Sequence record: PP925822.1
DNA: 50,469 nt
DNA from: Escherichia phage Kalemo
Strand: one strand, 5' to 3'
The notes under the pieces were generated by a model that was not told the origin of the DNA, searched no databases, and saw nothing but the letters and a program-made list of their open reading frames with translations. Shown here piece after piece: positions 7,988 through 8,149 of this stretch (positions within the stretch are counted from its first letter, which is position 1; the number at the start of each line of letters is the position of its first letter). A program made the translations under genes and the position numbers.

Positions 7988-8149
7988 TTGACAACTCTTT
8001 CCTGATTGGTTAGCATGGCGTCGTTTACATAAGAGCGGCTTAGTCCGAACGCGTGACGCGATAGTCACACAGCAACGGCGATATGCAGGAGGTTTTTGCA
8101 ATGCAAGATAATCCGTAAGACGTATCGCCTTTTTTAATGGAGATTCAAA

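Follow-up and report, generated by a model that had tools for sequence, protein, structure and literature searches.

What is encoded in a short intergenic gap of Escherichia phage Kalemo, where a mini-ORF lies inside a stem-loop that is followed by a run of T, is the question raised by this locus. Kalemo, whose sequence of 50,469 nt is the window analysed here, is a T1-like phage with its nearest relatives in Drexlerviridae, Tempevirinae, Warwickvirus. Over positions 7000-9400 its sequence shares 97-98% identity with those of Escherichia phages tonnikala, atuna, vB_Eco_Sip and vB_EcoS-95. T1 is a classical coliphage and among the oldest model phages, and the Drexlerviridae are among the most often isolated phages of E. 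coli, Klebsiella, Salmonella and Citrobacter. In controlling transcription, Drexlerviridae are not known to use any polymerase but that of the host.

The gap is 162 nt long and is found between a small gene ending at 7987 (phrog_303, conserved family-wide) and another small gene starting at 8150. On its 3' side the order is three small genes (that at 8150 being the first), a strong terminator, terS (8825), terL and the portal gene. The initial annotation had offered two readings of the gap, a leader-peptide attenuator or a "regulatory RNA element", together with a promoter. The second reading is borne out. The gap is the most conserved stretch of the neighbourhood, its promoter is kept family-wide and its stems change in compensatory fashion; in an alignment of 15 diverse Tempevirinae (Hanrivervirus, Henuseptimavirus, one Hafnia phage and mislabelled "Campylobacter" phages), the intergenic gap is better conserved than the flanking coding DNA. 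The gap holds a structured RNA module, encoded on the + strand and preceded by a conserved promoter of its own, that recurs throughout the family.

The promoter is of the sigma70 type and belongs to the RNA element. Its -35 hexamer, TTGACA (7988-7993), and -10 hexamer, TAGCAT (8011-8016), both on the + strand, are separated by a 17-nt spacer. This TTGACA-17-TAGCAT pair had been noticed at 7988-8016 from the start; it is present and is kept family-wide at a fixed distance from the RNA block. As a lone pattern match it is not significant, comparable matches occurring at chance frequency. TTGAC is found in every family member, 34-36 nt 5' of the start of the RNA block. The -10 hexamer takes the family form TAnnnT, with variants TAGTAT, TAACAT, TAACCT, TACATT, TAGGAT and TATCTT, all of which keep the T at position 1, the A at position 2 and the T at position 6. 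From the spacing, transcription is predicted to start at G8023 (± 1). Within the spacer the sequence CTGAnnGGT is conserved across the family. Spacers are not usually conserved in this way, and a site for protein binding or an extended -10 context is suggested. The -35 hexamer and the promoter spacer are covered by a direct repeat, TGATTGAC (7985-7992) and TGATTGGT (8003-8010).

The stem-loop that drew attention to the locus is the third, 3'-most hairpin of a promoter-proximal structured RNA that extends from about 8023 to 8135 and has a predicted length of ~112 nt. Only the last third of the element had thus been recognised at first; the conserved 5' block and two further hairpins, hp1 and hp2 (together 8022-8068), had been missed. 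RNAalifold applied to the Tempevirinae gap alignment gives three hairpins, and the whole predicted RNA folds better on the + strand (-31.8 kcal/mol) than on the - strand (-27.3 kcal/mol). All of its features lie on the + strand. The RNA opens with a conserved unpaired block, CGTTTACATAAGAG (8022-8035; also written CGUUUACAUAAGAG), for which the family consensus is CGUNNACANAAGAG; in the family alignment G2, T3, A6 and C7 are invariant, and C1, A10, G12, A13 and G14 are at least 90% conserved. The block is followed by hp1 (8036-8047), a short hairpin with a variable loop and three G-C pairs in Kalemo (4-5 bp in relatives). A linker, AACGC (8048-8052), in which AAC is invariant in the family and the next G at least 90% conserved, leads to hp2 (8053-8068), with a 5-bp stem, GTGAC/GTCAC, and a conserved hexaloop, GCGATA (RCGAUW in the family). 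A second linker (8069-8076) connects hp2 to the third hairpin, hp3. The near-invariant linear and loop motifs of the RNA are CGUNNACANAAGAG, AACG, RCGAUW and CCGUAA.

Both hairpins of the 5' domain covary. All four pairs of hp1 have changed on both sides, with 95.9% of cells paired, and its stem occurs as CGGC/GCCG, GCGC/GCGC, GCUC/GAGC, GCCC/GGGU and GCCAC/GUGGC. For hp2 the corresponding values are four of five pairs and 96.3%. Its 5' arm may read GUGAC, GUGGC, GUAGC, GCCAG, GCAUC or GCAGC, among others, and even among the Tempevirinae GTGAC/GTCAC is replaced by GTGGC/GCCAC or GTAGC/GCTAC. Taken together over 38 distinct 5' domains, hp1 and hp2 are 96.2% paired, with 8 of 9 pairs changed on both sides. 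Their covariation score of 0.719 compares with at most 0.135 when the partners are slid, and none of 500 shuffles reaches it. Wobbles in the two stems are 8 G.U cells versus 4 A.C cells. A pseudoknot between UUUAC in the 5' block and GUAAG was considered and is unsupported, as the 5' bases vary and GUAA does not.

The third hairpin, hp3 (8077-8129), has a predicted shape in which a 9-bp lower stem opens into an internal loop, beyond which come a 3-bp GGA/UCC helix and, at the top, a 6-bp apical hairpin. The lower stem pairs GGCGATATG (8077-8085) with CGTATCGCC (8121-8129), one of its nine pairs being U.G. The stem GGCGATA/TATCGCC named in the initial annotation is real and makes up the outer seven of these nine pairs, and covariation across 17 distinct relatives supports it. 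In that test, where the variable apical part was removed to hold register, the 17 distinct terminator-type stems are 96.7% paired, 6 of 9 pairs have changed on both sides, and the covariation score is 0.564 versus at most 0.274 for slid controls. For example, GGCGATATG/CGTATCGCC is replaced in relatives by GGCGCTATG/CGTAGCGCC. When the region was folded, as had been proposed, 8070-8140 gave -21.2 kcal/mol (z = -3.1), and 1 of 200 shuffles was equally stable. The apical extension (8088-8114) is lineage-specific, and its stems also covary (UUUUGC/GCAAGA, AUUGC/GCAAU, UUCAG/CUGAA, CCGC/GCGG). The 3' side of the internal loop carries an invariant motif, CCGTAAGA (8113-8120; CCGUAAGA as RNA), of which GTAAG is invariant in the alignment of Kalemo-type (type A) hp3 sequences. 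Two other identities were tried for this part of the RNA. An ops-like reading of GGCGATATGCAG, with 8 of 10 specified positions matching, was rejected because the sequence changes in the manner of a covarying RNA stem and phages of the T1 type lack it; a K-turn in the internal loop was rejected because several lineages have U in place of the A that it requires.

One hp3 pair is U.G in 12 of the 17 sequences, and such frequent U.G and G.U wobbles in hp1, hp2 and hp3 indicate that the constraint is on the + strand. This bears on whether the gap acts as DNA, for example as an origin of replication, a signal for single-strand initiation or a site of protein binding, with the hairpins forming in single-stranded DNA. 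Strong conservation, the direct repeat TGATTGAC/TGATTGGT in the promoter and the primase and helicases that the phage encodes (by the T1 annotation) would all suit such an element. It is nevertheless very improbable, given that G.U-type wobbles are common on the + strand, that a promoter at fixed distance is better explained by an RNA product, and that no AT-rich unwinding region, iterons or repeated copies were found. In the Kalemo window CCGTAAGA and GTAAGACG are unique, and there are no repeated operator-like copies of hp2 or hp3; the hp2-like and hp3-like hairpins seen elsewhere in the window look like chance matches.

Directly after hp3 comes the T run of the initial annotation, T6 at 8130-8135, and the two together have the form of an intrinsic terminator. 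A stable stem leading directly into a U-tract is found here, as in Rho-independent terminators and the 3' modules of Hfq-type sRNAs, where a GC-rich 9-bp stem is likewise followed at once by U6. The loop differs. Instead of the 3-8 nt of a short-loop terminator, 35 nt separate the arms of hp3 and are folded into a further helix and hairpin, so that hp3 is not called by a consensus terminator scan (loop 3-8 nt). In Hanrivervirus relatives the hp3 interior is 18 nt. Also unlike such terminators, hp3 carries an invariant motif and is kept even where there is no U-run.

The mini-ORF is the feature for which a leader-peptide attenuator had been suggested. It is present as described: ATG CAA GAT AAT CCG TAA (MQDNP; 8101-8118, + strand) lies inside the stem, with AGGAGG upstream at 8087-8092. 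A short ORF with a good ribosome-binding site (RBS) beside a leader terminator is also what the trp, his and pheA attenuators have, and AGGAGG with its 8-nt spacing to the ATG makes a strong RBS from which a ribosome would melt the apical part of hp3; translation of MQDNP would then modulate formation of the terminator. The likeness ends there. The Kalemo ORF is within the terminator loop rather than upstream of it, it is not conserved, it contains no run of regulatory codons, and no alternative hairpins, in particular no covarying alternative antiterminator pairing, were found. Its Shine-Dalgarno sequence (SD) is partly paired (GGA/UCC), the 9-bp lower stem that drives termination is outside the ORF, and the polymerase would by inference reach the U-run in under about 1 s, leaving a ribosome no more than this time to load.

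Comparison of relatives points the same way. The ATG and most of the ORF codons fall within 17 nt inserted at the apex, an insertion that most Hanrivervirus and Henuseptimavirus relatives and all those of the T1 type lack. The ORF itself is present only in Warwickvirus-type sequences and in JLBYU41/grams and is missing from the other lineages, the majority of the family members, that keep hp3. A long apical hairpin occurs in four lineages, and in only two of the four does it contain this ORF (MQDNP, MQNNP or MQYNP); in Pocis76 the hairpin holds another ORF, of 6 codons and lacking an SD, and in L163 it has no ATG. The changes within the ORF are those expected for pairing. Codon 3 changes from GAT to TAT in JLBYU41/grams, matched by T to A on the opposite arm so that a U.G pair becomes A-U, and G8107A (in Sip and L142) turns a U.G pair into U-A. 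The compensation of ORF changes in the helix indicates that selection acts on RNA structure rather than on the peptide. The stop codon TAA is part of the invariant CCGUAAGA. Judged from these alignments, the mini-ORF is incidental to the insertion of the apical hairpin, and ribosome-mediated attenuation by MQDNP is the least credible of the explanations considered here.

The element is found throughout the T1-like phages. For this survey 57 terS-anchored IMG/VR loci were collected, of which four that lack DNA upstream and one with a remote relative of terS (26% identity) were not counted as evaluable. Among the 52 evaluable T1-like loci, 51, T1 included, have the element in standard form. There is one diverged copy besides (L187), recognised by eye, with a diverged 5' half and the 3' hairpins kept. 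In the remote relative the element is absent. A covariance model, R1 (Tempevirinae version), matched 46 of the 57 loci, each time on the + strand and with terS 700-850 nt further downstream; five further copies were detected by pattern or by a second model, R2. The T1 copy (NC_005833, 7621-7700) occupies the syntenic ST58/ST57 gap and scores 28.9 bits with R1 (E = 3e-5). R2, built on the 5' domain, gives 64.5 bits for Kalemo and 62.7 bits for T1, and nothing above 17.3 bits in ~740 kb of unrelated viral contigs, which had been picked for having a 14-base motif in common with the element. BLAST with other variants extended the element to Rogue1/JK06-type, Klebsiella Webervirus-type, Citrobacter, Salmonella and TLS-type (LL5, U136B) phages. 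In viral contigs the 14-base core motif alone has at least 120 matching stretches; these are taken as chance matches, since none was recovered with an nhmmer profile built on the core alignment. Scanning the viral contigs with a longer pattern returned only five close relatives.

Rfam 15 covariance models give no relevant match at E ≤ 10 in the Kalemo gap, the T1 copy or the L196 copy (at the last the only match is to a neighbouring tRNA); a tRNA/tmRNA scan gave nothing relevant for the element, and no similarity of the element to E. coli DNA was found. A search of the literature returned nothing on this RNA and nothing on T1-type antitermination. The RNA family appears to be undescribed; the general kind to which it belongs, the promoter-proximal structured leader or attenuator, is already known.

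Two types of hp3 can be distinguished. Type A, found in Kalemo and other Tempevirinae-like lineages, has the 9-bp lower stem, CYGUAAGA on the 3' side of the internal loop and a U-rich tail, with 4-9 U in the 9 nt after hp3 in most sequences. Exceptions are Pocis76, which has no U-run, and the L161/L165 group, where the U-run is partly within the stem. Type B, found in T1 and in Rogue1-, Webervirus- and TLS-like lineages, has a 5-bp stem with the loop (A)NNCCGUAA and no U-run. It is preceded by an extra hairpin with a conserved loop, AUWGUGRWAA, and followed within 10-25 nt by an RBS or, in some lineages, by tRNA genes. The combination of own promoter and own Rho-independent terminator form, which in Hfq-type trans-acting sRNA genes bounds an RNA of 50-300 nt, is a property of Kalemo and the other Tempevirinae-like phages; T1-type, Rogunavirinae-, Webervirus- and Tlsvirus-like phages have no U-run. 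Since the hairpin is kept in type B with no U-run, hp3 with the CCGUAA motif is, as far as these sequences tell, the conserved feature, and the predicted terminator function is a lineage-specific addition.

What follows hp3 is also variable. The genes adjoining the element differ among lineages, T1 having an extra gene upstream. In four loci (L196, 1780-1854; L187, 1340-2000; L174; L184) one tRNA gene or a tRNA-like cluster begins 3-10 nt after hp3. In these lineages the element would be the leader of a tRNA operon, and RNase P would release it. Such variation in the 3' sequence, from unrelated small genes to tRNA genes, makes it less likely that the element controls translation of any single gene and favours a role in transcription or as an RNA in itself.

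One such role is that of a stand-alone, trans-acting noncoding RNA of ~112 nt that binds a host or phage protein or an mRNA, with read-through into the gene at 8150 a side effect. In the Kalemo lineage the element indeed comes with a conserved promoter of its own and ends on a good predicted terminator whose tail counts 6-9 U. Its loops and linkers are near-invariant family-wide, as would be expected for a specific binding partner, and the identity of the module is kept while both flanking genes change. Where tRNA genes are found 3-10 nt after hp3 their processing would free the RNA, so that in lineages with no U-run release by processing, e.g., by RNase P, could take the place of termination. 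Most lineages, however, have no terminator, and in them an RBS comes directly after hp3; expression of the genes downstream requires read-through; and the RNA has no similarity to Rfam sRNAs or to E. coli DNA. We regard a free-standing RNA of this kind as unlikely, though it comes second to the reading developed below.

Dependence on read-through is seen in the genes that follow the Kalemo element. From the U-run to the ATG at 8150 there are only 14 nt, and these include the RBS (GGAG, 8139-8142) of the first downstream gene (8139-8383, + strand). A protein of 50 aa with a CxxC...H arrangement is encoded next (8373-8522, + strand; phrog_2919), followed by a DUF7299 protein (8522-8746, + strand). 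The genes of 8150-8746 have no promoter of their own and so need read-through of hp3. The unit is closed by a strong bidirectional intrinsic terminator at 8752-8769 or, as more widely delimited, 8752-8775. The CxxC...H protein is found in nearly all T1-like loci at 38-72% identity, with CxxC and one His invariant, and its gene always follows the RNA element and precedes terS. The protein is a candidate for a partner that acts with the RNA. Searches of Pfam and PHROGs with ten flanking small proteins returned only families of unknown function and no N- or Q-like protein.

The region entered from the element is rich in terminators. At least 8 strong + strand intrinsic terminators are located downstream of it, those past terS being at 10948, 14669, 16791, 19433, 20162, 23241 and 25912. 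In 10948-10995, 14669-14715, 16791-16840 and 20162-20205, a GGAG and the ATG of the next gene are within 3-12 nt of the terminator. This leaves no room for a promoter, so that the genes behind the terminators at 10948, 14669, 16791 and 20162 need read-through. The T1 annotation has the same pattern of terminators abutting the RBS of the next gene. In the early block (1-8000) no strong + strand terminator was found.

These observations are best accommodated, if still tentatively and at a little under even chances, by a cis-acting leader and attenuator that sets read-through into the terminator-rich late operon. With no terminator after hp3 in most lineages, the RNA would normally be co-transcribed as a leader. 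A co-transcribed element located at the start of transcription and at the entrance to a terminator-rich region points to a role in elongation or as an RNA itself. The steps proposed are as follows. Host sigma70 RNA polymerase would start at about G8023 from TTGACA-17-TAGCAT and transcribe the unpaired 5' block, hp1, hp2 with its loop GCGAUA, and then hp3 with CCGUAAGA. In the Kalemo lineage hp3 and U6 would act as an intrinsic terminator at which part of the transcripts end (~8133-8136), yielding the RNA of ~112 nt; the remaining transcripts would read through hp3 and allow expression of the genes at 8150-8746. The platform formed by hp1, hp2 and CCGUAA would act in cis on the polymerase, either directly, in the manner of HK022 put, or through a conserved host or phage factor, in the manner of nut. 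It would set the share of transcription that passes hp3 and the later terminators, with hp3 and U6 as the first checkpoint. The mini-ORF would have no part in the mechanism.

Several observations count against this leader and attenuator. An extended -10 promoter, TGGTATAAT (8788-8796, + strand), is located 28 nt before the terS ATG (8825) and directly after the 8752 terminator; it was missed by the consensus scan because it has no -35. A terminator and an extended -10 are also found before terS in T1 (TGGTAAAAT) and L187 (TGGTATACT). With a promoter of their own at terS, the late genes need not depend on that of the element. The terminators inside the late operon may do no more than adjust the proportions of the mRNAs. 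The element would, moreover, be transcribed by polymerases coming from the early genes upstream, and a model of a simple timing switch is weakened by this. Finally, no homology to put, no boxA on the transcript and no N- or Q-like protein were found, and the start, the 3' end and the efficiency of the terminator are predictions.

A riboswitch-like sensor would share much of this architecture. In that case hp1, hp2, the junction nucleotides and the CCGUAA loop would form the aptamer for a metabolite or ion, and the expression platform would be the terminator in Tempevirinae-like phages and the RBS-proximal region in the T1 type. A conserved core joined to a terminator in some lineages and to an RBS in others is typical of riboswitch classes, as are highly conserved unpaired nucleotides beside stems that covary. 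The difficulty is with the platform. The hp2 loop GCGATA (8058-8063) repeats the core of the hp3 5' arm (8079-8084) and could compete for TATCGC in the 3' arm, but this candidate antiterminator pairing shows no covariation, and the complementarity fails in IsaakIselin, Jahat and T1; no other covarying pairing takes its place. In addition, hp3 carries a conserved motif and is thus not a free platform, control of an RBS would be meaningless in the lineages where tRNA genes follow, and no Rfam riboswitch matches. A sensor is for these reasons improbable, though less so than an element acting as DNA.

Among the closest known systems are the put RNAs of HK022 (putL and putR), which bring about processive antitermination in cis. 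A put RNA alone makes E. coli RNA polymerase resist terminators, by way of the zinc-binding domain of the beta' subunit. As predicted for the Kalemo element, putL and putR are structured RNAs whose first nucleotides lie at about +1 of a sigma70 promoter (+2 of PL in the case of putL), they act with the host polymerase, and a terminator-rich operon is found downstream; in neither phage is an N- or Q-like protein identifiable nearby. The structures are different. Two long stems of ~70 nt with a triplex make up put, whereas the Kalemo element has at least three short hairpins with conserved loops. Neither R1 (with filters off) nor R2 gave a match at putL or putR of HK022, where putL had been located.

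Lambda offers a second comparison. The PR'-tR' unit (6S RNA) also consists of a promoter and ~110 nt that end on an intrinsic terminator, with the late and packaging genes close behind; the promoter is constitutive, and a short RNA results unless termination is overridden. In kind, hp2 is like the boxB hairpin, having a 5-bp covarying stem and a conserved loop. In contrast to the Kalemo element, near which Pfam and PHROGs searches detected neither protein, the lambda system has Q and N, and whereas PR'-tR' ends in a terminator, most T1-like family members have none after the element. A nut-site boxA (CGCUCUUA-like) was not found on the transcript of the Kalemo element. The sequence CGCTCTTA, identical to boxA of lambda nutR, can be read only from the non-transcribed strand (8031-8038), opposite TAAGAGCG of the 5' block, whose reverse complement it is. 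Being on the wrong strand and not kept in T1, it was judged a coincidence.

A bolder proposal, which is speculative and rather doubtful, is that the element represents a new class of promoter-proximal antitermination RNA, unrelated to put, which acts alone or with the CxxC...H protein and allows read-through of hp3, of the terminator before terS and of the late terminators. If this were true, an antitermination RNA would explain how the late operon is expressed by a phage with no known transcription factors, and it would rank as only the second or third RNA to reprogram a bacterial RNA polymerase. A host-factor screen with the TLS-type phage LL5 lists no transcription factors. The promoter and the covarying multi-hairpin RNA, placed at the entrance to the packaging and late region, are a candidate for the control of late genes. 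At a minimum, the element defines a new family of phage RNAs, whose place in current annotations is taken by spurious small ORFs.

In all GenBank records inspected the RNA element is without annotation, and the gap is annotated, if at all, with occasional small ORFs. Some annotated coding sequences of relatives start inside the element, for example 705-1007 in L008 (pSf1_0057; likewise in egaa, damhaus and slyngel) and 655-762 in L010 (bas07_0089), with an ATG in the 5' arm of hp3 or inside the 5' domain. These are probably mis-calls, as a better RBS and ATG are present just 3' of the U-run. About 20 GenBank records titled "Campylobacter phage" (UNVERIFIED; MG065636, MG065640 and others; L009 and L012 in the present set) are Hanrivervirus-type T1-like coliphages that have the element, and they are probably contaminants or have mislabelled hosts.
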